Below are positions 2,028-61,365 of a stretch of 64,000 nucleotides of DNA, piece after piece. Under the pieces are notes generated by a model. It had not been told where the DNA came from and ran no database searches. It saw only the letters and a list, made by a program, of their open reading frames with translations. A program made the position numbers and the translations under genes. How positions within the stretch are numbered: the first letter of the stretch is position 1; the number at the start of each line of letters is the position of its first letter. Origin of the DNA: an uncultured Spartobacteria bacterium (GTDB lineage Bacteria; Verrucomicrobiota; Verrucomicrobiia; Chthoniobacterales; UBA6821); the NCBI GenBank assembly GCA_903913785.1, contig CAIWMF010000009.1, positions 2,878 to 66,877 on the forward strand, read 5' to 3'.

Positions 2028-3245
2028 ATGCGCCGTGAACAGCTCTTTGTCGGTCTTGAAATTGGAACCACAAAAATTTGTGTGATTGTTGCAGAAGGAT
2101 TGCCAGATGGCTCTATTCATATTTTAGGCGTCGGAGACACTCCTTCACGAGGGATCCGCAAGGGAGAGATCATTGACTTTGCAAGTGTGACGGAATGTGT
2201 GCGCGAAGCCATCATTGATGCTGAGGAGAAAAGCAATGTCGAAATTCGTAGTGTGTGGGTAGCCTTATCAGGCGGGCATTTGCAAAGCTTTAATAATCGT
2301 GGGATATGGATTCTTCCTGATGATCATGATGCGATCACTCAAGAGGATCTTCGTATGGTTGAAATAAATGCCAAAGAGGTCACCCTTCCCTCAGCTAATG
2401 CCTTTCTGCACACAATTATTCAAAACTATCATGTCGATGGAAATCGTAATGTTATTGACCCAGAGGGGATGATTGCATCCCGTTTGGAAGCCGATTTTCA
2501 TATTGTTCATGGGGTGAAAAATCGAATTCAAAACACACTTCGGTGTCTTGAATCTTTAAAATTAGATGTTGAGGATATTGTGATGAATTCTTTAGCCTCC
2601 GCACAAGTAGTGCTCACTCAGCAGCAAAAAGATCTTGGAGCCTTGGTGATTGATATTGGCGGAGGAACAACAGATTTCTTGATTTACATTGATGGAGCAG
2701 TAAGACATAGCGGTGTCCTGGCTTTGGGAGGCGACCATATTACTAATGATATTTCTATTGGCCTAAGGCTTCCAATCGCACGCTCGGAGCTTCTCAAAAT
2801 TGAAGAGGGTTCTGCATTGCTGACTGCATCTATGAACGAGCAAAAAATTCATCTTAAAAATGACACTCTATTTTCAGGATGTGAAATCGATCGCAAGGCG
2901 CTTAACTTAATTATCCATGCTCGTGTGAACGAGCTCATGCAGCTTCTGCGTCGCGAGGTAGAACGCGGTTGTCATTTAGATCTCCTGGGAGCAGGTATTA
3001 TGTTAACAGGAGGCTGTTCTAAATTACGTGGGATCAAAAAACTCACCGAAGAAGTATTTCAACTGCCGGTTTCCGTGCCGCTTTTAAGCAATATCTCAGG
3101 CCCAACATCTACTTTTGAGAATCCTGAGTTTTCTACGGCCATTGGTCTTACTAAATATGCTAACGCTGTTTATACTGCAATCCCTCACGAGAACTTTTTT
3201 TCTAAAATCACAGATGTTCTTGGGGGCTTTTTTGGACGTCGATAA
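2028..3245 (+). CDS. ftsA: cell division protein FtsA
   Basis: 405-aa actin-fold protein (FVGLEIGTTKICV, VIDIGGGTTDF), directly upstream of the ftsZ-like gene. Confidence 0.9.
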   Translation: MRREQLFVGLEIGTTKICVIVAEGLPDGSIHILGVGDTPSRGIRKGEIIDFASVTECVREAIIDAEEKSNVEIRSVWVALSGGHLQSFNNRGIWILPDDHDAITQEDLRMVEINAKEVTLPSANAFLHTIIQNYHVDGNRNVIDPEGMIASRLEADFHIVHGVKNRIQNTLRCLESLKLDVEDIVMNSLASAQVVLTQQQKDLGALVIDIGGGTTDFLIYIDGAVRHSGVLALGGDHITNDISIGLRLPIARSELLKIEEGSALLTASMNEQKIHLKNDTLFSGCEIDRKALNLIIHARVNELMQLLRREVERGCHLDLLGAGIMLTGGCSKLRGIKKLTEEVFQLPVSVPLLSNISGPTSTFENPEFSTAIGLTKYANAVYTAIPHENFFSKITDVLGGFFGRR

Positions 3246-3260
3246 TATAGATTGATCATC

Positions 3261-4715
3261 ATGCCTTCCTCTGCTCTCAACTCAGGTTCTCGATCCATAC
3301 ACTTTTCCTACCGTATTATTGGTCTGGGTAATGCTGGGGTGAATTTTTTAGATCGCTTGTTACTTAAGGATCCTGCGTTCTCTGGACTCATTGCTCTTAA
3401 TAATGATGCTGAGGCACTCGCTGCCTCGGTTGTGACCACAAAGCTCCTTCTGCCCTCGGAGCTCGATGATTCTTCCTCATTGTCTTCTGAAGACTTAGCA
3501 AAAGCTCTTCCTCAACTTGTCAAGGAGATGGAGCAAGCATCAGTGGTAATTCTTGTGGGAGGTCTTGGTGGCGGATGCGCCTCAACACTCCTTCCTCATG
3601 TGGCAAGGATGAGTAAAGCCGCTCACAAAACGACTCTTGCCTGCGTGAGTCTTCCTTTTTCCTTTGAGGGTAAACGAACGCAATTAATAGCCGCTCAGTC
3701 GATGGCAGCATTAGAAAAAGAATGTGATGGATTGATTTTCCTAGATAATGATCGTCTTTGTGCAAAGCGTGCTTCGATTTCTGCCTTAGGGGAAACATTT
3801 ACTGCTTCTGATGAGGCTATGGAAGCGATTTTGCCCGCACTCTTAGCTATTTTATTTAACAAAGGTCCTGTTCGTATTACGCGTGCTGATTTTTTAAAAG
3901 CATTGCAAGAGCGTGGTTCCAAGCACTCGTTTGGTTACGGTGAGGCCATAGGGGGGAATCGATTACATGAAGCACTTGAGCAAGCTTTAAAAAATCCTCT
4001 ACTCGATCGTGGGCGCTGTTTGCCTAAAGCGAGTCATGTTTTTCTACTCTTGCGAGGTCCTAAGGATATTTCTTTTGCAGAAGTGCAAGCTGCCATGCAG
4101 GAAGTAGAGCGCTTGGCAGGACCTGACCGCGATATCCAATTAAGTGTGTATCCCGAGAAGCCTTCTGGAGAGCCTTTGCAAATTTTTCTTTTCGCTATTA
4201 TTGGAGGAACTCCTGCTGCACTAGAGGTAATGCAGCCCTTGCCAGCAGCTGAATCTAAACTACCCAAGGAAGAAATTATTAAGCCGCAACTAGAGCTTAG
4301 TAGTCATGAAACTCTCCCCTCTATAGATCTTTTAGAGCGCCCGCAAGCTTCTCAAGACGAACATGCCGTATTGGAGAGTATTGTAAGTAATTGTGAGACT
4401 CTTGCCAGTAGCCTAAAGACTAGCACCAAGGGAGTGAAGCCATACAGCCAAGAAGAGGAAGGATCAATAGCACCTAAAAAAGAGAGGGAAGATAAGAGGG
4501 AGCTTTTTCAAGAAGATCTTTTTAAGAAATCTGCTGAAATTCCAGATGCTATTGCTACAAAGTCCTTGCTACCTCCAAAACTCAAACAAACTCAAGGAGC
4601 TTTGAATCTCAAAGCCCTGCAACGAGGGCGCTTCGATAAAAGCGAACCAACTATTTTTGAGGGAGAGGATCTTGATACGCCTACCTATTTGAGATTAGGA
4701 TTAAAACTCGGCTAA
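3261..4715 (+). CDS. ftsZ: divergent FtsZ-like tubulin-fold protein
   Basis: Track ORF 3252..4715 (TTG start); first ATG at 3261. FtsZ-like blocks are present: IIGLGNAGVNFL, LNNDAEAL, VGGLGGGCAS, SLPFSFEGKR, FLDNDRL. It has a long disordered linker and a C-terminal DLDTPTYLRLG peptide resembling the FtsA-binding tail. It occupies the canonical position after ftsA. Confidence 0.8.
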   Translation: MPSSALNSGSRSIHFSYRIIGLGNAGVNFLDRLLLKDPAFSGLIALNNDAEALAASVVTTKLLLPSELDDSSSLSSEDLAKALPQLVKEMEQASVVILVGGLGGGCASTLLPHVARMSKAAHKTTLACVSLPFSFEGKRTQLIAAQSMAALEKECDGLIFLDNDRLCAKRASISALGETFTASDEAMEAILPALLAILFNKGPVRITRADFLKALQERGSKHSFGYGEAIGGNRLHEALEQALKNPLLDRGRCLPKASHVFLLLRGPKDISFAEVQAAMQEVERLAGPDRDIQLSVYPEKPSGEPLQIFLFAIIGGTPAALEVMQPLPAAESKLPKEEIIKPQLELSSHETLPSIDLLERPQASQDEHAVLESIVSNCETLASSLKTSTKGVKPYSQEEEGSIAPKKEREDKRELFQEDLFKKSAEIPDAIATKSLLPPKLKQTQGALNLKALQRGRFDKSEPTIFEGEDLDTPTYLRLGLKLG

Positions 4716-4949
4716 CCCGAATATTTCATACTGATTGTTACGAGGAGGCAGCGAAGCCTTATGGATACTGCGCTCAAGCTCGAAGTCGTTGATTCGCTTG
4801 GCGAAGCTTGACTCACCCCTTCGGGGCTGTTGGAGAGCAGTCTGCCCCACGGCCTCGCAGCCAGTGGTGTTCTCCGGGCATTATGTACAGAGATACAGCC
4901 CTGCTTCCAAATATTCGCATGCCTGACTCTATCAGGCTTCGCGGCTGCC
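4713..4949. mobile_element. MITE-like repeat copy A (one intact terminus, right terminus missing)
   Basis: Starts with (C)TAACCCGAATATTTCATACTGATTGTTACGAGG, sharing its TAA with the ftsZ stop codon. Internal blocks match other copies (GCGCTCAAGCTCGAAGTC, ATGTACAGAGATACAGCCC). Inverted arms GGCAGCGAAGCCT (4747-4759) and AGGCTTCGCGGCTGCC (4934-4949) close the element and are followed by a T7 run, so it could also act as the dcw-operon terminator. Confidence 0.75.
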
Positions 4950-4963
4950 TTTTTTTATTAGGA

Positions 4964-6580
4964 CTAAGAAATAGAACAAGCATTTCTACTTGGCAGCTTC
5001 GACTTATCCTTTATCTCCAAATAACCAGCCAACTGCTCCGTAGCAGCCAACTGCTCCGTAGCATACAAATGATTGCGAGCGTATAGAAGATAAGAAGTAT
5101 CTGGAGCTGATGAGGAACAGTTTGCTCGCGTAAATAAATCGAAGACTTTATTAAAGCCCTTAATGATATCTGCTCTAGGCTTCGGTCTTGCCAACTCAAG
5201 CGTGAGACACAAATGAGCGCGACCTTTATAATATAGATTCTCTGCGCTGTCTTCATCGTCCTCTCTTTCTGCTTTTTGAAAAAACTCGAAGGCTTCATTA
5301 AAGCCCTTAATGATATCTGCTCTAGGCGTCGGTCTTGCCAACTCAAGCGTGGCATCCAAACGAGCACGACCTTGATTTCTTATATAGTAAGTTTGATAAC
5401 CTTCATTAACATGAATTTTTGCTTTTTGAAAAAGATTAAATGCTTGGTTGAAGCCCTCAATGATATCTGCTCTAGGTTGTAGTTGTGCTGACTCCTCCGT
5501 GCTCGACAAAGCAGCAGAAGCTTCGTTCTGTAAATAATAAGCTCGATCATAATGGCCGTTAGCTCGTTCTTCCTCGGCTTTTTCAAGAAGAGTAAAAATT
5601 TCATCCAGAGTGATTACCAGTTTGAAACAAAAAATAAGCTCGGCGTTTTCGGGCACGTTCTTTAATAAAAGACACCCAGATTGTAAGGCTTTTTTGTAGT
5701 TTTCTAAATATTCGGTCCTATTTGCTAAGTGAGCGAAAGATCCTTCTGAGTCTAATTGTAAGCTTCCAAGACCAGCTGTTCTAAGATCAGCTATTTTAAG
5801 ATCAATTATTTTTTTATCTAAGGTGATGATGTTGTCTTGGAGGGCGACAGAAATATTATTTAATATCTTACCGTCTAGATTGACATGTTTTCTTAAAGAG
5901 CGTGAGGTTAAAGGAAACTCTATTTTTCCTTTTGCTACTTGCTCTAACATCACTCTTCCATCGAGCACCTCTTTGATAAGTTTTGGCTCCAGTTCCTCTG
6001 TAAAGTCAAATGAAAGCAACCTGTTTTGCTCAATTTTTTCTAATGCTTCTTCAAATTTATCTTGCACAGAGATAGCTCTTACGTCCCTAAATAGGGAGTT
6101 ATTGACGATATCTGTGACTTGGTCTGCATCCAGTCCTTGAGTATCCAAAAGTCTCTCTAGTGGGCCTCTTTGTTCCTCTGTTTCTGAGAGATCAGGTGGT
6201 GCAGAAGGTTCAATATCTCCACTGATTTTAAGAGATTCAGACTTATTTATTATCTCTGGAACTGGAGGATAAGAACTTATCGTATTAACCTCCTCTGAGG
6301 ACATACTAGTTGATGGAAACTTTAAATTTTCTAAAGATGCTAAATTTTTAGATTTTTCTTTAGCAGGATCTTGAGCAAGACGAGAAGGTCGATTCGAAAA
6401 CGTACTCGTCGACATCTGTTTGCTAACCTTGTGTGTTGGAACCGTAGGCATCTCAACAACTGTAGTCGATCCGGGGAATTTCCCTTTCACTCGCACTGAT
6501 CGAGCTTGGGCAGATGAAGGAGCCTGAGGGTTTGCTGTTGGTACTTGAGAGCTAGTTTGTGGTTTTGATTTTAATAGCAT
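4964..6580 (-). CDS. hypothetical protein with C-terminal 49-50 aa tandem repeats
   Basis: 538-aa ORF. The N-terminal third is S/T/P-rich and I saw no signal peptide. Three repeats of the form PRADII[EK]GFN.AF..F.KA....LELARP. I recognise no family. Confidence 0.6.
   Translation of the reverse strand: MLLKSKPQTSSQVPTANPQAPSSAQARSVRVKGKFPGSTTVVEMPTVPTHKVSKQMSTSTFSNRPSRLAQDPAKEKSKNLASLENLKFPSTSMSSEEVNTISSYPPVPEIINKSESLKISGDIEPSAPPDLSETEEQRGPLERLLDTQGLDADQVTDIVNNSLFRDVRAISVQDKFEEALEKIEQNRLLSFDFTEELEPKLIKEVLDGRVMLEQVAKGKIEFPLTSRSLRKHVNLDGKILNNISVALQDNIITLDKKIIDLKIADLRTAGLGSLQLDSEGSFAHLANRTEYLENYKKALQSGCLLLKNVPENAELIFCFKLVITLDEIFTLLEKAEEERANGHYDRAYYLQNEASAALSSTEESAQLQPRADIIEGFNQAFNLFQKAKIHVNEGYQTYYIRNQGRARLDATLELARPTPRADIIKGFNEAFEFFQKAEREDDEDSAENLYYKGRAHLCLTLELARPKPRADIIKGFNKVFDLFTRANCSSSAPDTSYLLYARNHLYATEQLAATEQLAGYLEIKDKSKLPSRNACSIS
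5026..5061 (-). repeat. perfect 18-bp tandem duplication inside a CDS
   Basis: CAGCCAACTGCTCCGTAG occurs twice (5026-5043 and 5044-5061), encoding ATEQLA ATEQLA near the C-terminus of the 538-aa protein. Confidence 0.9.
5100..5545 (-). repeat. intragenic tandem repeat, period 147-150 bp, 3 copies
   Basis: The motif TT[AG]AAGCCCT[TC]AATGATATCTGCTCTAGG starts at 5151, 5298 and 5448. Copies 1 and 2 continue with near-identical C[TG]TCGGTCTTGCCAACTCAAGCGTG. Confidence 0.85.
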
Positions 6581-9566: not shown

Positions 9567-9618
9567 TAGCCTAGCTTCCCAGCTTCTGCAGTAGATCGGT
9601 GTGAAATATTCGGGTTAA
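9567..9618. repeat. MITE-family solo end (left-end type, inverted)
   Basis: CCTAGCTTCCCAGCTTCTGCAGTAGATCGGTGTGAAATATTCGGGTTAA matches the reverse complement of the left end of copy 36009-36197 at 41 of 49 positions by hand alignment. Confidence 0.7.
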
Positions 9619-15467: not shown

Positions 15468-17600
15468 TTAATATACCAAAAAACGCATGGCATTAAGGTC
15501 TTCGGTAGCTCTTTTAAGCGATTTCTGAGCACGTTCAATGGCTTCTTTCTGATTTTTAATGCTGTTAATATTAGAACCTCCAACGATATAGGGTGAAGTA
15601 ATGAGCGTGTAATAGTCTTCCATAGAGCCCTTTCTTTCAAAAGAAAATTGAGAAAGATTATGCTTTGTCTTTATTTTCTCTTGGCCTGGACGCATATAGA
15701 GCAAGAGTGGTCCTGTTTGAGCATCAGGCTGTGCTAATTGAGTCACTTTCTTAAATTCAGAGGCAGCATGATCATATGATTGAGCTATTTTTTGATAAAG
15801 ATTTGCTCTTTCATAAAAATTATTTTCATGTGAGTGTACATATTCCTCGGCACTATTCCTGTAGTTGTTATACGCATGTAAGCAGCACATTTTTTCATCA
15901 GCTCTTTTGTTGCTCATCGCATTTTTGAGATCACTTTGGCTCTTAAGGGCTCTTTCTAATAAAAAATTTATTATCGCAGAATGATCGTGAGAGGTGACCT
16001 TTTGATGTGTGATCGCCATGTTTGATGAGCTTTTAAAAGTGCCATAGTTCTTTTTACTTTCATCAGGGAGTAAACATTCCAATTCTTCCTGAGTCGGTTC
16101 TACTTCCTTAGGTTCTGGCTCATGGAGAGCCTTCTTGGGTATGATGGGTCCATTGATATAATGAATGGAGGTATTCTCTGTTTTATTAATTTCAGTAAGA
16201 GTCGCATTTAATAAGGAGACTAGTGCTGTTGCTGGTCTTGAGTTGCGCTTGTTTGGAGGGTTCCCACAGACTGAGATCTTTGGGAAGGAGGAAAGTTCTT
16301 TAGTGATCAGTTCAGATCCTTCATCATCTGAATGTTTTAAACCTAGGAATAGAGGAGATTGTTTTTCTGATTTGACGGGCGAGGTCACCTGCGTGATAGG
16401 AAGAATATTTGATTTTGTATTTAGAAGAGGAGTTTTTTCGCTGTCTTGGATCCCAGAGTTAGCAAGATGAGTATTATTGTTGTTACGCTGAATAGAAGTA
16501 TTCATAAAATTGAAAAAATCTGTTTCTGACAATTCCTCGTTGTTACTTGCTCGTCTTATTTTTCCCAAGTCTAAATTATTTTGAGAAGACGTTCTCTCAT
16601 CTATGTATTGAGGTAGAGATCGAAATTCGTGCTCATAGGATGGCCGTGTATGGAGATTGGATTCTGCACAAAGACATGTGTCACATATTCTATTATGTAC
16701 TGGTTGTCGTTCTCTGTGCTGAAGGGGTCGTCGAACGCCTGAATAGACACTTATGCCAGATATAATGAGTCCCAAGGCATCTCTTATGAAGGGCTCTGCT
16801 ACGCCACCCATTGTTGGTATCATCATCATGGTCACATTTTTTTGATTCTCTTCTTGCCTCTCTAGCACAAAGAAGGAGTGATTACTTTTTAGATCGGGGT
16901 CGACGTTATGAAGACATGCTTCTTCATGATGATTTAACCCGGATATTTCATGCTGATCGTGACGAGAAGGCTGCCAAGTCTGATGGGGCAAGGCGAGTGA
17001 TGAAGCCTGACAACGGCTGTATGAGTACATATTGACTCGCTCGCACCTGCTCGGCTCGCCCTTACGGGCTGCCCCTAACCTAACACGGTTACGGCAGTCT
17101 ACCCCAGGCTCTCCCGCGCACTGGTGTTGCCCGAGGAAGACTTCGAGCTTGGGCGCAGCATCACTCTCTTGGGTTACCTCATCAAGTATTTCTTGCATGA
17201 CTTCCTCACTTATCTTAGAAGGGATATCCTTGCCTTCCTTCTCTTGAAGAATGAGGGCATAGCATTCTGCATCGAGTAAACTGAGAAATGTGATGAGAGC
17301 ATCTTGTGTCGTCTTGAAACTCTCTATCTCATCATTAAAGATAGGAGCTTCATAGACGTAGGACCCAGGAATACCCATGCGAAGGATTCCTCCTTTGGCT
17401 TGAGGAATATCTGCCATCTTTTCATTGTAGAGATGATGTAGGTCGCTTGTGGCTGCACCATTTAACAACTCGGTATATTTGCTAATGGATATTCTACTAT
17501 TGCGAGACTCTTGAGCAGCCAGCTTTGATAGGTGTGCAAAAAAAAGAAATGTTATTAGAGGTACGAAAAGAAAGATGAATGCAATGGGGGAATGGCGCAT
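15468..17600 (-). CDS. hypothetical secreted protein carrying an in-frame repeat-element insertion
   Basis: 710-aa ORF with an N-terminal signal-like segment (IAFIFLFVPLITFLFFAHLSKLAAQE). I recognise no family. Roughly aa 146-223 are encoded by MITE copy C. Confidence 0.55.
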   Translation of the reverse strand: MRHSPIAFIFLFVPLITFLFFAHLSKLAAQESRNSRISISKYTELLNGAATSDLHHLYNEKMADIPQAKGGILRMGIPGSYVYEAPIFNDEIESFKTTQDALITFLSLLDAECYALILQEKEGKDIPSKISEEVMQEILDEVTQESDAAPKLEVFLGQHQCAGEPGVDCRNRVRLGAARKGEPSRCERVNMYSYSRCQASSLALPHQTWQPSRHDQHEISGLNHHEEACLHNVDPDLKSNHSFFVLERQEENQKNVTMMMIPTMGGVAEPFIRDALGLIISGISVYSGVRRPLQHRERQPVHNRICDTCLCAESNLHTRPSYEHEFRSLPQYIDERTSSQNNLDLGKIRRASNNEELSETDFFNFMNTSIQRNNNNTHLANSGIQDSEKTPLLNTKSNILPITQVTSPVKSEKQSPLFLGLKHSDDEGSELITKELSSFPKISVCGNPPNKRNSRPATALVSLLNATLTEINKTENTSIHYINGPIIPKKALHEPEPKEVEPTQEELECLLPDESKKNYGTFKSSSNMAITHQKVTSHDHSAIINFLLERALKSQSDLKNAMSNKRADEKMCCLHAYNNYRNSAEEYVHSHENNFYERANLYQKIAQSYDHAASEFKKVTQLAQPDAQTGPLLLYMRPGQEKIKTKHNLSQFSFERKGSMEDYYTLITSPYIVGGSNINSIKNQKEAIERAQKSLKRATEDLNAMRFLVY
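16934..17164. mobile_element. MITE-like repeat copy C, located inside a CDS
   Basis: Starts TTAACCCGGATATTTCATGCTGATCGTGACGAGAAGGCTGCCAAG. It ends in CCCGAGGAAGACTTCGAGCTTGGGCGCAGCATC, which is the reverse complement of the GATGCTGCGCTCAAGCTCGAAGTCTTCCTCGGG block of copy D. The second terminus is missing. Confidence 0.75.
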
Positions 17601-25497: not shown

Positions 25498-26391
25498 TTA
25501 CAGAGGTCGTTTGAAATCCTCTACATGATCAAATCCAGGAGGTATCGGAGTTGCAGGGGTCTTTAGAGATGTCATGGTTCCAATGGGTGTGAGCTCTAAG
25601 GCTGGGAAATGATTTTTCCAATCAGCATGGAGTTTTAGCCATGCTTTGGGATCAATGGTCACGAGCAGTTCGTAATCCTCACCATGAGTGATCGCCTCTT
25701 GTGTGGACGAGTCTTGATGGCATGGTATGTTATTTTCCTCGATCAAAAAATTGCATTGGCTCGCTCTTGCAAGCCTCGGAAGATCGCTACCCAGACCATC
25801 ACTGAGATCCATCATGGCGTGGACACCTGATTGTGCCGCTAACCATTGACCTTCTAGGAGCCGAGGCAGGAAGGTAAGATGACGTCCGCTTTGAAATGAT
25901 CCACCGAGCTTACCGGTGACACAGATCAGATCATTAGGTTGTGCCGCGCTGCGCAGTAGTGTGCGAGGTCCTGTGATCCCAGACAAGGTGACCGAGATAA
26001 AGAGCGTTGTCGGAGACCGTGTGATTTCTCCTCCAATAATGGTGATCTTAAAGGTTCTTGCGGCTTTTCCTATGCCACGAGACAGATCGCGCCATTCATT
26101 TTCACTCCGAGCTAGAGGCGCAGCGACCGTGACTAACGCATGCTGGGGAATAGCACCCATCGCTGCAAAATCACTGATAGGACGACAGAGAGCTTTCCAG
26201 CCGACGGCGCTCAGATCTGTTTCTTGGGTAAAATGAATACCCTCGAGGGTTGCATCTGTTTTAAGAACCAGTGAGTGACCTTCGGGCGGTGGTCTCACTA
26301 CGGCACAGTCATCACCACTTCCCACAATAAGAGAGGGATGGCTTATTGGTAACTCTTGTCGAATGATTTCAAGCAGCGATTCTTCTGTCAT
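25498..26391 (-). CDS. thiL: thiamine-monophosphate kinase
   Basis: 297 aa, AIR-synthase-related fold, with an N-terminal GDDCAVV motif. Confidence 0.85.
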   Translation of the reverse strand: MTEESLLEIIRQELPISHPSLIVGSGDDCAVVRPPPEGHSLVLKTDATLEGIHFTQETDLSAVGWKALCRPISDFAAMGAIPQHALVTVAAPLARSENEWRDLSRGIGKAARTFKITIIGGEITRSPTTLFISVTLSGITGPRTLLRSAAQPNDLICVTGKLGGSFQSGRHLTFLPRLLEGQWLAAQSGVHAMMDLSDGLGSDLPRLARASQCNFLIEENNIPCHQDSSTQEAITHGEDYELLVTIDPKAWLKLHADWKNHFPALELTPIGTMTSLKTPATPIPPGFDHVEDFKRPL

Positions 26392-36008: not shown

Positions 36009-36197
36009 TTAACCCGGATATTTCATACTCATCTACTGCGGAGACCGGGAAGCTAGGGTGGATGCTGCGCTCAAGCTCGAAGTCTTCCTCGGGCGGTATG
36101 TACACATACAGCCCGGCATCACAATCCTTCGCCCGCCTTGTACTAACAAGCTTTGCACAGCGTCTCATTACGATTCAGTATGAAATATCCGGGTTAA
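36009..36197. mobile_element. MITE-like repeat copy D (full length, both termini)
   Basis: 189 bp. TTAACCCGGATATTTCATAC at 36009 and GTATGAAATATCCGGGTTAA ending at 36197 are exact reverse complements, with TTAA on both sides. The interior shares blocks with copies A, C and G. Confidence 0.85.
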
Positions 36198-37571: not shown

Positions 37572-37700
37572 AGTAGTAAAGTGGGTTGTTTTTGTGATGG
37601 AAAACACACTATATAGTAAACTCAACGCATCTGCAAATTTTTTTTGCATTCTTTTTTTGGGGGGCACCCCCAATGCATGTCGTCCCATGAGAAGGGAGTC

Positions 37701-37767
37701 TAGCCCGCATATTTCATATTGGTTCGTCGCAAGCCGCAGCAGAATCGGTATGAAATATTCGGGTTAA
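37701..37767. mobile_element. mini MITE-family copy E (67 bp, both termini)
   Basis: TAGCCCGCATATTTCATAT ... GGTATGAAATATTCGGGTTAA. The termini are inverted at about 16 of 19 positions, with only about 28 nt between them. Confidence 0.75.
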
Positions 37768-37921: not shown

Positions 37922-38060
37922 TTAACCAGGATATTTCATACGGATCGTGACGAGGCGGCCGCGAATACTAATAGGGTAGCACCAGTGCTCCCTCTACTCG
38001 AGTACCTCAGGTACACTCCATTGCTGCGAGCTCTTAATTTCTTGTTTTTCATCAGCTTTA
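37922..38060. repeat. MITE-family copy F (one terminus plus interior shared with 41721-41824)
   Basis: TTAACCAGGATATTTCATACGGATCGTGACGAGGCGGCC..., ending ...TTCTTGTTTTTCATCAGCTTTA just before the giant ORF. The 3' 69 nt align to 41756-41824 at 50 of 69 positions. Confidence 0.7.
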
Positions 38061-41824: not shown

Positions 41825-42035
41825 AACCCGGATATTTCCTACTGATCACCTGCGGAGACCGGGAAGCAAGGGTGGATGCTTCGCTCAAACTCACATTGTG
41901 ACTTGGGGAGGGCTGTACACATACAGCCCGGCGTCACAATGCTCGTCTGCCTTACCCCATCAGCCTTCGCAGTCTCTTCGTCACGACTAGCATGATTAGC
42001 ATGAAGTATCCGGTAGCATGAAGTATCCGGGCTAG
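41822..42035. mobile_element. MITE-like repeat copy G (full length, duplicated right terminus)
   Basis: TTAAACCCGGATATTTCCTACTGATCACCTGCGGAGACCGGGAAGCAAGGGTGGATGC... The right end is TAGCATGAAGTATCCGG twice (41997-42013 and 42014-42030), followed by GCTAG. Confidence 0.8.
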
Positions 42036-56175: not shown

Positions 56176-56943
56176 ATGCGTACTTATTTTAATGGTGTCG
56201 ATACTCGCGGAGCGTTTGGAAAGTTACATGAGGGAGAGGTACCAAAGCATGCATTCACCGGAAGACTCGGTGGTCATAAAGTCACAGTAGCTGATTTTGG
56301 TCCAACCGTCAATAAAGGCTTGAGAACCGCGATGCGGCTTCCTGGATATGCTCTAGTGGCTGCAGGTGCGCAAAAAACGGCTGAAGAGTTCTATCCAAAA
56401 TTATCAGTTAAAAAGTACCTCGCTGCAGAGTGTGTTCACACACTGGAACACCTAACCGCTGCGTCTCGAAAAGTGCGCGAAAATCGTGAGTTCGATGCAA
56501 AACAAGCAAAGAAAAACAAGACTGCAGATGAGCAATATACTCCGAGAAACCCTGTCAGGACTCACGGTAATAGTGGTCGTTTACCAATCTCCACAAGCAC
56601 TTCAGGTAGCACTGACCCTCAGCCTTCTAGCCCGGTACCCAATTTTTTTGATCATAACCCTATTAGTCAGGTTAATGAGGATACGCTGCGCAGTCGCTCT
56701 CCTAGTGTGGCTAGTGATGATAGTTATGATAGTGATGATAGTGATGATAGTGATGATAGTGTGGGTAGTGATGCTAGTAGTAACTTTGATTTTTATGAAA
56801 CACAAGAGCCCCCAGAAGAGCCCCTAAATACAGCAGCAGAAGTAGCAGACATAACACAAGGGTTAGAGAAGTATGCTACAGAAACAAATATCCCCGCTAA
56901 AATAGGAGCAGACATAGCACAAGCGTTACAGAAAAAAGCATAA
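56176..56943 (+). CDS. hypothetical protein with an acidic Ser/Asp repeat tract
   Basis: 255-aa ORF. I recognise no family. Its C-terminal half contains DDSYDSDDSDDSDDSVGSD. Confidence 0.5.
   Translation: MRTYFNGVDTRGAFGKLHEGEVPKHAFTGRLGGHKVTVADFGPTVNKGLRTAMRLPGYALVAAGAQKTAEEFYPKLSVKKYLAAECVHTLEHLTAASRKVRENREFDAKQAKKNKTADEQYTPRNPVRTHGNSGRLPISTSTSGSTDPQPSSPVPNFFDHNPISQVNEDTLRSRSPSVASDDSYDSDDSDDSDDSVGSDASSNFDFYETQEPPEEPLNTAAEVADITQGLEKYATETNIPAKIGADIAQALQKKA
56713..56781 (+). repeat. 9-bp coding microsatellite (AGTGATGAT and variants, about 7.5 units)
   Basis: AGTGATGAT AGTTATGAT AGTGATGAT AGTGATGAT AGTGATGAT AGTGTGGGT AGTGATGCT AGTAGT. Confidence 0.9.
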
Positions 56944-57079: not shown

Positions 57080-57137
57080 CCGCACGCATCATCTTCGCGG
57101 TCTCCTCGTCACGATCAGTATGAAATATTCGGGCTAG
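57080..57137. repeat. MITE-family solo end upstream of dnaG
   Basis: ...CATCATCTTCGCGGTCTCCTCGTCACGATCAGTATGAAATATTCGGGCTAG matches the right-end type of copies C and G. No partner terminus is found within about 200 nt upstream. Confidence 0.7.
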
Positions 57138-57209
57138 ATTGCGGATGCTAAGGGCATGCGAGTCTTTGTACTTGCCGAGTATCTATGCCTTGTGCAAGTA
57201 GTCTATTGC

Positions 57210-59139: not shown

Positions 59140-61365
59140 TTGACTTGTTGCCCGTTTATTCTTGCCTTCGTATTATTTTTAACAGCTTTAAAATCAGTGA
59201 CTAAAAAGAAATTTTCCTTATCTGCTAAGACAAAGAACCATGCTTCTCCCGCAAAGAAAAGTTCATTGCCAAAAAATACGATTGTTAAAAAAAACAGGAC
59301 ATCGATTCCTCTGAAGCCTGTCACAAAAAAAGCAATCCCTAAAAAGGCTCAGCCCGTTGTGGATAAGCAACGAAAGTCAACAAAAGTGACATCTTCTACA
59401 CACAAGGAAAAAGCACCTTTTAAGAAAAAGTCTCCACCCCCATCTCCTAAGGCTCAAAAGAAACTGACTCCCGAAGTTCTTAAAAAAAACTCTAAAAAGC
59501 CCTTGCCTTCATCGAAACCTTCTTCTCCAAAGGTTCTCAAAAAATCATTGACAATACGCCGCGAAGAAGCGAAGGAGGATTTCTCCTCCAAGCAGGCTTC
59601 TTTGCCTGCGCGCAAAGAAAAAAAGCAGCAAGAGAAAAAGCATTTAGATAGAGCTATCCCTGATGTTTCCTCAACAACAAGTGCTCTTTTCATTAAGAGC
59701 GATGTTATCCCAAAAAATCCTTTAGAAGCACAAAAGCTTTTACAGGAAAAGGTGAGGGAACTTTTAAAATTAGCCAAGGAGCAAGGATACATTACCTTTG
59801 AGGATCTAGAAGAGCATCTTCCTATAGGGATGAATAATCCCGAAACCGTAGAGTCTATCTTAACACAGCTCCGTATTGTAGAAATTGATATTATTGACTC
59901 CTCGGATGTTGATCGTGTGAAAGAGATCAAGAAATCCGATGATGACGATGATAAGGATGAAAAAGATGAAAAGTCAGATGGACGTCTAGATATTCTAGAT
60001 GACCCAGTACGTATGTATTTAAAGCAGATGGGGCAGGTCCCTTTGCTGACACGCGAGCAGGAAGTAGAAATTTCCAAACGCATTGAGCAGGCACAAACAG
60101 AAATGCAAAATGTGCTTTACCGTTTTGGCTTTGTTGCTCACGCACATATTGATCTAGCACAACGATTGATAGATGCTCGCGAGCGTTTTGACCGTGTGAT
60201 CTTAGATAAAAAAATCGAAAGTCGCGAACGGTATCTAAAAACACTTCCTCGTCTCTGCCAGCAGCTTCAAAGGCTTGCTTTAGAAACAGGTCTCGTGTAT
60301 AGCAAAAAAATTCTTTCAAAAAAAGAGCCCGCCTCTAAGGACGTGAAAGAAATGGAAAAACAAATTGAGGAAATTATTAAACTCTACCCTAGATTTTACT
60401 TTAAACAAAAAATTACTGAAGATTTTGTTACCTTAGCAGATGAACATCTTCGTCTCTTACAAGAATTGCGTTCTGAACATGAGACTCATGTTCAGAATCC
60501 GACGCCTACCTCACGTCGTCTCATCCAGGGGATTATTGTTCAACGCGATGAGCACCATCATCGCAATTGGATGTCTACAGAACTTTTTGAAATACGCTAT
60601 CGTGATCTCAAAAAGCATTTTCGTTCAGCCTTAAGAGCTAAAACAGAAATGGTGGAAGCAAATTTACGTCTTGTGATTTCCATCGCTAAAAAATATACCA
60701 ATCGGGGGCTCTCATTCTTGGACTTAATTCAAGAGGGCAACATGGGGCTTATGAAAGCGGTTGAGAAATTTGAATATCGTCGTGGATATAAATTTTCTAC
60801 TTATGCAACATGGTGGATTCGGCAGGCTATTACACGCTCTATCGCTGATCAGGCGCGTACGATCCGCATTCCGGTTCACATGATTGAAACGATCAATAAA
60901 TTGATCCGTGTCCAGAAACAGCTTGTTCAAGAGTATGGTCGTGAACCAACCCCTGAGGAAATTGCAGATGAAATTCAACTTCCTGTAGAGCGTGTACGAG
61001 CTGTGCTCAAGATGGCTCAGCAGCCTATTTCACTGCAGGCCCCTGTAGGAGATAGTGATGATACGAGTTTTGGTGATTTTATTGAGGACAAATCAGCCGA
61101 AAATCCAGCAGATATGGCTGCAATTGTTTTGCTAAAAGACAAAATTAAAGATGTTTTAGAATCATTGACAGAGCGTGAGCGCCAAGTCCTAGAACAACGA
61201 TTTGGTTTAGTAGATGGCTATTCTCGGACCCTTGAGGAGGTCGGGAAACAATTTAAAGTTACTCGAGAACGCATTCGACAGATCGAGGCGAAGGCTCTTC
61301 GTAAAATGAGGCATCCCACACGTCTGCGTCAACTAGAAGGGTTTCTTGAGCCAAAAGATCTATAA
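59140..61365 (+). CDS. rpoD: RNA polymerase primary sigma factor RpoD with a Lys/Pro/Ser-rich N-terminal extension
   Basis: 741-codon ORF. Regions 1.1-4 are clearly present ([48 protein letters not shown]). There is no ATG before codon 231, so the start must be non-ATG (TTG 59140, GTG 59197 or later). The exact start is unknown. Confidence 0.9.

Follow-up and report, generated by a model that had tools for sequence, protein, structure and literature searches.

A probable MITE relic in frame inside a 710-codon ORF

A 64,000-nt stretch of contig CAIWMF010000009.1 (assembly GCA_903913785.1) from an uncultured Spartobacteria bacterium, called the window below, contains a 710-codon open reading frame (ORF) at 15468–17600 (minus strand) that carries within it one copy, copy C (16934–17164, minus strand), of a short repeat family. 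The family is a MITE (a miniature inverted-repeat transposable element), and we conclude, with a probability of roughly two in three, that copy C is a MITE relic whose in-frame reading lengthens the linker of a genuine, rapidly evolving gene product by ~77 amino acids. An earlier reading of the window from its letters and ORFs (the original prediction) had placed a repeat copy wholly inside this ORF, and this agrees with our profile matching, alignment and frame check; the ORF is as described there, and the peptide quoted for the repeat is exactly residues 146–223. When copy C is compared with a profile of 15 independent full-length long copies of the family, window positions 17164 to 16935 match model positions 51–277 of 278 (E = 7e-39), and the 231-nt boundaries proposed earlier are thus the limits of detectable homology.

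The G+C content of copy C is 58%, compared with 41% for the gene and 44% for the window. The peptide it encodes was described as rich in Cys, Arg, Gly and Pro, and its composition is indeed elevated in the first three (Cys 5.1 versus 1.4%, Arg 10.3 versus 4.4% and Gly 7.7 versus 3.6% in the comparison) and slightly so in Pro (6.4 versus 4.9%). Exactly one of the six frames across copy C is free of stop codons, and it is the ORF's own frame, which links both flanks. The predicted stop-free passage of that frame is therefore correct, but the accompanying statement that other frames through the element are also open is not, since the other five hold 2–5 stops each and the two plus-strand ORFs cited for it (16811–17035 and 17032–17247) each cover only about half of the element. 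Translation through copy C, as predicted from this frame, would give a 710-aa protein with the junction-spanning peptides ...DEVTQESDAAPK... and ...DQHEISGLNHHEE....

The intact terminus of copy C (16934–16973, minus strand) was delimited by DNA alignments and consists of a TTAA flank (16934–16937) and a terminal inverted repeat (terminus pattern match at 16935–16957) that together encode QPSRHDQHEISGL. A GC-rich central module of 95 nt (17036–17130, minus strand, from alignments) defines the long form of the element and is the source of the Cys/Arg/Gly-rich peptide. On its upstream side copy C lacks the first ~50 nt of the family consensus, which is one terminal repeat; it is probably an old relic that, because of this loss, can no longer move. 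The idea that the insert is a multiple of three therefore holds for the 231-nt remnant and does not hold for the element as a complete unit, from which ~50 nt of consensus are missing. We considered whether a degenerate second terminal repeat is present on the upstream side and rejected it, as the 50 nt upstream of copy C have only ~37% identity to the terminal repeat (alignment, hand count), which is near random. The coding-strand heptamer GTAACCC at 17171–17177 (minus strand; compare TTAACCC) is a possible remnant of the lost left end, but it is suggestive only; we estimate that a 6-mer match in the same phase would occur by chance with a frequency of ~1–3%, and its annotation is tentative. 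The front half of copy C is read in canonical frame +2, a frame in which the consensus terminal repeat holds a stop, and its last part is read in canonical frame 0; the shift between these two frames within the copy is due to the 95-nt module.

The repeat family has the structure of a MITE

Pairing of termini gave 118 terminus pairs in 654 kb of sequence, a sample that is biased in that most of its loci were fetched by the terminus pattern itself. Among these pairs are 81 copies of a canonical element of 184 nt including flanks and 15 copies of a long form of ~273–275 nt, which has the extra GC-rich module in its central hairpin. The terminal inverted repeats are ~25 nt long and near-perfect (CCCGGATATTTCATAC... 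/ CCCGGATATTTCATACTGATC...), and the consensus folds as one long hairpin (dG −47 kcal/mol, z = −9.2). A 23-nt terminus pattern finds 10 matches with no more than three mismatches in the window, where 0 are expected, and altogether 8 family members or fragments are present in the 64-kb window and 183 in the 654 kb. When each prokaryotic species was represented by a single genome, a scan for the terminus gave 76 loci or more, nearly all of them in lake metagenome-assembled genomes (MAGs) labelled Chthoniobacterales or Verrucomicrobia; the family is thus abundant in freshwater Chthoniobacterales. The window is only ~76% identical over 1.2 kb to one of these MAG loci and so belongs to a different, though related, organism. 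A scan of viral contigs for the terminus gave 0 matches.

About 90% of the element flanks are YTAR. Where the flanks are not palindromic they are identical direct repeats in 9 cases and reverse-complement-symmetric in 0, which indicates that the target duplication is a 4-bp direct YTAR. A 4-bp YTAR target duplication is characteristic of IS5-family insertion sequences and their MITE derivatives. The present family thus resembles the IS5 family in duplicating this target and in having terminal inverted repeats, but it differs in that no transposase gene with matching termini accompanies it in the sequence examined, and its termini are not known to resemble those of E. coli IS5. The elements are too short to encode a transposase, their translated peptide matches short hypothetical proteins only, and the window contains no Rfam family and no tRNA genes. 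By its small size, high copy number, terminal repeats and target duplication the family is a MITE, and it would presumably be mobilised in trans by a cognate transposase.

One candidate for an autonomous parent, at locus L021 of the sample, was rejected. The only widely spaced terminus pair that surrounds a transposase (L021:2286–3880) is a complete MITE copy interrupted by an unrelated insertion sequence (IS) of ~1.4 kb, which has its own termini, with sub-terminal repeats TGACTCATAA.TTTTGACACC / GGTGTCAT..TTTTGAGG, and encodes, in an ORF of 380 aa, a DDE-like pattern (D...D...NDNAYVEQKN). Other mobile DNA can therefore insert into the MITE.

The element is compatible with coding sequence

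On either strand of the canonical consensus just one frame is open, and because the termini are palindromic both orientations give the same reading, LTRIFHTD...DQYEISGL; the other four frames contain stops. In the 81 canonical copies this frame (frame 0) is open in 40 in the forward and 31 in the reverse direction, as compared with 3–7% of shuffled sequences, while of the four remaining frames three always contain a stop and one lacks stops in 6 of the 81. An insertion adds the element and one further copy of the target, a net length that is divisible by three in 52 of 81 copies and has its mode at 180 nt, or 60 codons.

If a genic copy is defined as one that has 30 or more codons of host sequence on either side in an ORF no shorter than 150 codons, 21 of the 183 family members in the biased sample lie wholly inside long ORFs and ~162 are intergenic. 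The genic copies of full length include both orientations, and their reading is in frame 0. The hosts include 3-dehydroquinate synthase (AroB, two copies), type I dehydroquinase (AroD), histidinol dehydrogenase (HisD), an AIR-synthase-related (AIRS-domain) kinase and a multidomain phosphodiesterase/TPR/sulfotransferase protein. The kinase insert lies between the residues that correspond to 99 and 100 of thiamine-monophosphate kinase 5cc8. Judged from sequence, AroB and HisD also apparently carry their copies in frame; the HisD insert seems to fall between positions 59 and 61 of 1k75, although HisD matches that structure only weakly on the N-terminal side (i-E 39), and the N-terminal side of the insert in the AroD host (L050) has no match among solved structures.

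The kinase gene supplies an empty site. The window's thiamine-monophosphate-kinase-like gene (25498–26391, minus strand, 297 aa) has an empty CTAG target at 26112–26115 (minus strand), as shown by comparison with two other alleles: that of L002 (1012–2085, 357 aa) reads CTAG-element-CTAG and is exactly 180 nt longer, and that of L003 (1085–2074, 329 aa) has the insertion of L002 minus an in-frame internal stretch of 84 nt. L003 is ~98% identical to the window overall, yet the two differ in occupancy of this site. Two substitutions lie right beside the CTAG site of the empty allele, and this suggests an old insertion polymorphism that has been shuffled by recombination rather than a recent precise excision. 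The bidirectional open frame, the 60-codon insertions, the genic copies and the empty kinase site together bear out the central idea of the original prediction, that a selfish repeat resembling the Rickettsia palindromic elements (RPEs) is carried in frame by genes of an unrelated lineage.

More than 100 "hypothetical proteins" of 66–196 aa from Verrucomicrobiae/Chthoniobacterales MAGs (P0004–P0122) match the translated element, and these are probably annotation artefacts of free-standing MITE copies. A word-indexed protein search with the element peptide gave only 133 candidates, of which almost all were short ORFs; genic cases already known were absent from them, and hence the search is not a census.

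Structural alleles at the copy C site

DNA alignments of the recovered alleles of the 710-aa gene define three structural forms at the copy C site, all with the common right junction ...CCGGGTTAA/ATCATCAT. The long form is present in the window, L003, L002 and L080. The short form, in L081, is without the ~95-nt GC-rich core and has a net difference of −96 nt. The third form, in L001 (protein P0003), is shorter by 234 nt and has only a 40-nt remnant. The block missing from it corresponds to window positions 16974–17207 (minus strand), 234 nt or 78 codons, and takes in 43 nt upstream of the element as well as the greater part of the element itself. The orthologue lacking precisely the 77-codon block, for which the original prediction suggested a search, was thus not what we found; 78 codons are absent, the block is offset by 40 nt from the boundaries given earlier, and the element's terminal 40 nt are retained. 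Since that terminus is still there, the site in the P0003/L001 allele is not empty but has undergone a secondary deletion, in frame. We also tried to polarize the 234-nt difference by phylogeny, but for the window, L002 and L001 different genes give conflicting pairwise dS (synonymous divergence), so no tree is usable and the polarity rests on the retained 40-nt terminus.

L001 also contains, in the spacer downstream of its 710-aa gene (2740–3022), a complete 283-nt long-form copy with CTAG...CTAG flanks in the opposite orientation. Its core is ~97% identical to the core of the block, and its 95-nt module is 97% identical to that of copy C. Recent mobility, a local hop, or gene conversion between copies could each account for this spacer copy.

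A sequence of events that would produce these alleles can be proposed. Insertion at an in-phase Leu codon (YTA followed by R) would add 60 codons in either orientation and leave the gene unbroken, while insertions in other phases would meet stops and would presumably be purged. At copy C the site would have been the linker that joins the N-terminal module of a fast-evolving, signal-peptide-bearing protein to its membrane/C-terminal part. Loss of one terminal repeat would then have made the copy immobile, with the 95-nt module of the long form bringing the reading back to the canonical end frame. From then on the insert would have drifted at the amino-acid level while its frame stayed open, and sister lineages would have trimmed it through further in-frame deletions.

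The host ORF is a real, fast-evolving gene

The predicted 710-aa protein has a signal-peptide-like N-terminus, an N-terminal module (aa ~10–120), a linker that contains copy C and continues from it to an MMM motif (aa 224–256; 16833–16931, minus strand), a hydrophobic segment that begins at MMMIPTMGG (aa 257–288), a variable middle and a conserved C-terminal domain (aa ~532–700). The part of the linker between copy C and the MMM motif has a codon-level coding signature in comparison with an outgroup (below). A search among 5.8 billion proteins found only 3 close homologues, and metagenome contigs supplied 2 further alleles; intact homologues are 710, 712 and 629 aa long. All close homologues have the gene order cyclopropane-fatty-acid-synthase-like gene, 710-aa ORF, DUF1345, glucokinase. 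The neighbouring housekeeping genes have dS of 0.1–0.26 and ratios of nonsynonymous to synonymous divergence (dN/dS) of 0.01–0.2 (NG86), and since these neighbours differ by so little, the homologous loci belong to close relatives.

An exhaustive search of 1.8 billion representatives found separate distant homologues for aa ~10–120 and aa ~532–700, with E down to 1e-26; a third class of matches consists of short proteins that match only aa ~145–230, the repeat element. The protein has no Pfam family, and AlphaFold2 on its four-sequence alignment was uninformative (mean predicted local distance difference test score, pLDDT, 28.6). Four distinct alleles (window, L003, L002/L080 and L001) have an intact ORF. 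Their nucleotide divergence reaches ~13%, with 285 differences between the window and L002, and every indel among them is in frame. The ratio of nonsynonymous to synonymous differences per site (pN/pS) is 0.22–0.37 over aa 51–150 and 201–250, and ~0.4 over aa 501–600. The four intact alleles, the exclusively in-frame indels, the constrained segments and the distant homologues of both ends show that the host ORF is a real and fast-evolving gene.

In a distant relative (L090:2354–4071) two tandem C-domain paralogues of 193 and 356 aa lie directly downstream of the cyclopropane-fatty-acid-synthase-like gene, and the C-domain family therefore keeps the same genomic neighbourhood across wider distances. 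We examined L090 as a possible two-gene arrangement of the host locus, but its upstream 193-aa gene is a C-domain paralogue and not an N-module, so it is uninformative in this regard.

One gene or two, and other explanations

A number of our results weigh against the reading that we favour, an in-frame MITE relic in a real gene. The 654 kb of sequence yielded no transposase gene with matching termini that could be an autonomous partner. The census of in-frame copies is subject to survivorship, as out-of-frame insertions are not scored as genic. None of the recovered alleles of the 710-aa gene is element-free with a clean TTAA site, and therefore insertion into a pre-existing continuous ORF is not directly seen. 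Gene-wide dN/dS of the host ORF is 0.5–0.8 (NG86), and the gene appears to be dispensable or decaying in the L081 lineage, where the allele (3001–5029) is frameshifted near codon 395 and, a few codons upstream of the element, has an in-frame stop by change of CAA to TAA (metagenome assembly error is the alternative). In addition, in all alleles whose ORF is continuous the element, or what remains of it, sits precisely where the two parts of the gene meet, and the nearest element-free relative, which is syntenic (L083–L087, four sequencing runs), has instead a 128-aa ORF, a 115-nt spacer and a 539-aa ORF. The 128-aa ORF matches aa 1–119, and Met1 of the 539-aa ORF (MMIPSLNE) aligns to window aa 259. 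These last two results could mean that the MITE was associated with a gene fusion, in which an adjacent ~130-aa secreted N-module gene and a ~540-aa membrane/C-domain gene became joined into the 710-codon ORF. The element would have been in, or at the edge of, a short spacer, loss of its left terminal repeat would have removed the upstream stop, and the frame of element plus spacer would have bridged the two genes. Such a route accords with the side on which copy C lacks its terminal repeat, with the presence of TAA or TAG in the YTAR targets and at least one window copy that abuts a stop codon, and with the finding that, among the 1.8 billion representatives, the N and C parts are combined in no protein outside the window clade. 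However, the downstream frame of the outgroup is open for 147 nt upstream of MMIP with no ATG, GTG or TTG there, and its first ~30 nt are shared, in a different frame, with the end of the upstream ORF (L083:3854–3885, and likewise in L084–L087); an open, startless and overlapping frame of this kind is the mark that a frameshift leaves in an ORF that was formerly continuous. Moreover, in the 26 linker codons upstream of the MMM motif, the window and outgroup have pS of 0.81 and pN of 0.30 in the ORF frame, while control frames, which contain stops, have pS of 0.23–0.33 and pN of 0.40–0.43, so this linker has been translated. More distant N-module proteins are also long (459–517 aa) and have the module at their N-terminus. 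The two-gene alternative raised in the original prediction thus finds its two ORFs in the element-free relative, but the coding signature of the linker and the missing start codon favour one gene. We favour a continuous ancestral gene that was later split by a frameshift in the outgroup, where the split is either a fixed frameshift or possibly a recoding site. The junction DNA of the window clade and the outgroup has no reliable homology between "...YEMT" and "DVDP", so the point of frameshift or fusion is not locatable. We consider a fusion unlikely but keep it under consideration, because all continuous alleles carry the element, the outgroup contigs are identical at the junction and so amount to one observation rather than four, and the junction does not align.

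Two further explanations retain a single ORF at this locus but assign a different status to it or to the insert. The ORF might be a decaying pseudogene or a chance read-through in which the element is stop-free by accident and no full-length protein is made. The gene-wide dN/dS above, values of 0.8–1.5 in the middle third of the ORF, the premature TAA and frameshift of L081, the absence of a Pfam family and the low pLDDT would all suit such decay. On the other hand, four alleles are intact, and all indels, including the 234-nt one, are in frame in spite of the 285 differences between the window and L002; since ~4–5% of random substitutions create stops, we estimate that the frame would have stayed open by chance with a probability of ~e^-12. 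The N- and C-terminal parts are constrained (pN/pS 0.2–0.4) and have their distant homologues, and the single open frame of six through the element is precisely the one that joins both flanks. Decay, which the original prediction had also considered, is rejected for the window allele on the grounds of its intact relatives, in-frame indels and constrained segments, and as an overall account it has hardly any probability left. The insert might, alternatively, be functional, for example as a Cys-rich or flexible linker, and be kept by selection and not simply tolerated. It is kept in 4 of the 6 sampled alleles, and the window and L002 differ at 10 positions of the 234-nt block, fewer than the gene average of 13%. 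But these are 8 nonsynonymous and 2 synonymous changes (dN/dS ~1.1, from small numbers), so nothing points to constraint on the amino acids of the insert. The DNA of the N-terminal region next to it is conserved to a similar degree (26 differences in 393 nt), L001 has deleted the block in frame with the rest of its ORF intact, and L081 lacks the core; we therefore think exaptation very improbable. An in-frame MITE relic that is tolerated in the linker of a real gene agrees best with these observations.

Relation to known in-frame repeats

RPEs were described by Ogata et al. (2000, 2002), and the summary in PMC10969869 reports 44 copies in R. conorii and nearly half of RPEs in ORFs. RPEs are like the present family in being short palindromic repeats of ~150–180 nt with an open frame that sit in frame in unrelated genes, including metabolic enzymes, without destroying the host protein, and small AT-leaning genomes are found on both sides. 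They differ in that their hosts are obligate intracellular Alphaproteobacteria, whereas the present family inhabits free-living freshwater Verrucomicrobiota, and in that the present family has MITE hallmarks (~25-nt inverted repeats, a 4-bp YTAR duplication and a documented empty site), is read in frame in both orientations and, in the biased sample, lies mostly between genes (~162 of 183 copies). The likeness that we propose is one of mode and not of membership, and the family has no Rfam match. By analogy, then, it would work like an RPE but is probably not one, since its host phylum is different and its termini and YTAR duplication are those of a classical MITE.

In-frame fusion of repeats with host ORFs is also known, according to PMC10969869, PMC3184786 and PMC5896051, for intragenic ERIC, BOX/RUP of pneumococcus, BRE of Bordetella, QMITE1/2 of Coxiella and MITEs of Anabaena. 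Such elements are, like the present ones, non-autonomous, with open frames fused in frame to host ORFs internally or at their 5′ or 3′ ends, and they are often annotated as small hypothetical proteins, as here; they differ in family, host, size and target duplication (for example, QMITE direct repeats are 2–3 or 7–11 nt). A non-exhaustive search, in the portions of the literature on related repeats that it covered, met with no mention of a bidirectional open frame combined with a 60-codon net insertion, and a full-text search found no description of such a family in Verrucomicrobia.

In-frame colonisation of genes by selfish repeats has thus been represented by one classic example, the Rickettsia RPEs, and by scattered individual cases. 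The present family is not a new principle, but it adds to these a second system, clear and rich in copies, from a phylum that is free-living and unrelated to Rickettsia. Its empty, full and internally deleted alleles segregate among closely related lake populations and could serve the study of how insertions originate, are trimmed and are tolerated; conversely, enzyme genes with 60 extra codons could be mis-scored as aberrant. A bolder idea, which we put forward tentatively and hold to be somewhat doubtful, is that the family has been shaped for coding compatibility, through its bidirectional open frame, 60-codon net insertion and in-phase Leu target, with coding sequence as its habitat in the compact, gene-dense genomes of freshwater Verrucomicrobia, and that the element may also have welded two genes into the 710-codon ORF. 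If this were true, the family would be a second RPE-like system, of independent origin and open to mechanistic study, in which insertions, deletions and empty sites are still polymorphic in natural populations.

Other copies and repeats in the window

The other family copies in the window are all intergenic. A complete canonical copy with TTAA...TTAA flanks is present at 36009–36197 (plus strand; model positions 1–184, E 2.5e-45), and repeat search and profile identify a second complete copy at 41825–42035 (plus strand), whose right terminus is tandemly duplicated at 41995–42035 (GCATGAAGTATCCGG twice). The same methods find a degenerate long-form copy with a CTAA flank at 4712–4956 (plus strand) and a solo terminus fragment at 9572–9618 (minus strand). 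A mini-copy that consists of little beyond the two termini lies at 37700–37767 (plus strand; repeat search and terminus pattern), and two more solo terminus fragments at 37922–37978 (minus strand) and 57083–57139 (plus strand) were found by BLAST and profile. The TAA stop codon of ORF 3252–4715 is inside the CTAA flank (4712–4715) of the degenerate copy that adjoins it. All four YTAR targets contain TAA or TAG, and stop codons may be preferred landing sites of the family; such a preference would explain why many copies abut the ends of genes.

Tandem repeats were also seen in the window. ORF 4964–6580 (minus strand) contains, at 5132–5526, three tandem copies of a ~147–150-nt unit with 66–88% identity, and a repeat-domain protein is therefore indicated for it. 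A 9-nt tandem repeat of ~8 copies (GATAGTGAT-like units) occupies 56694–56792 inside ORF 56176–56943, and a weaker stretch related to this 9-nt repeat is found at 61051–61087 in ORF 59140–61365.

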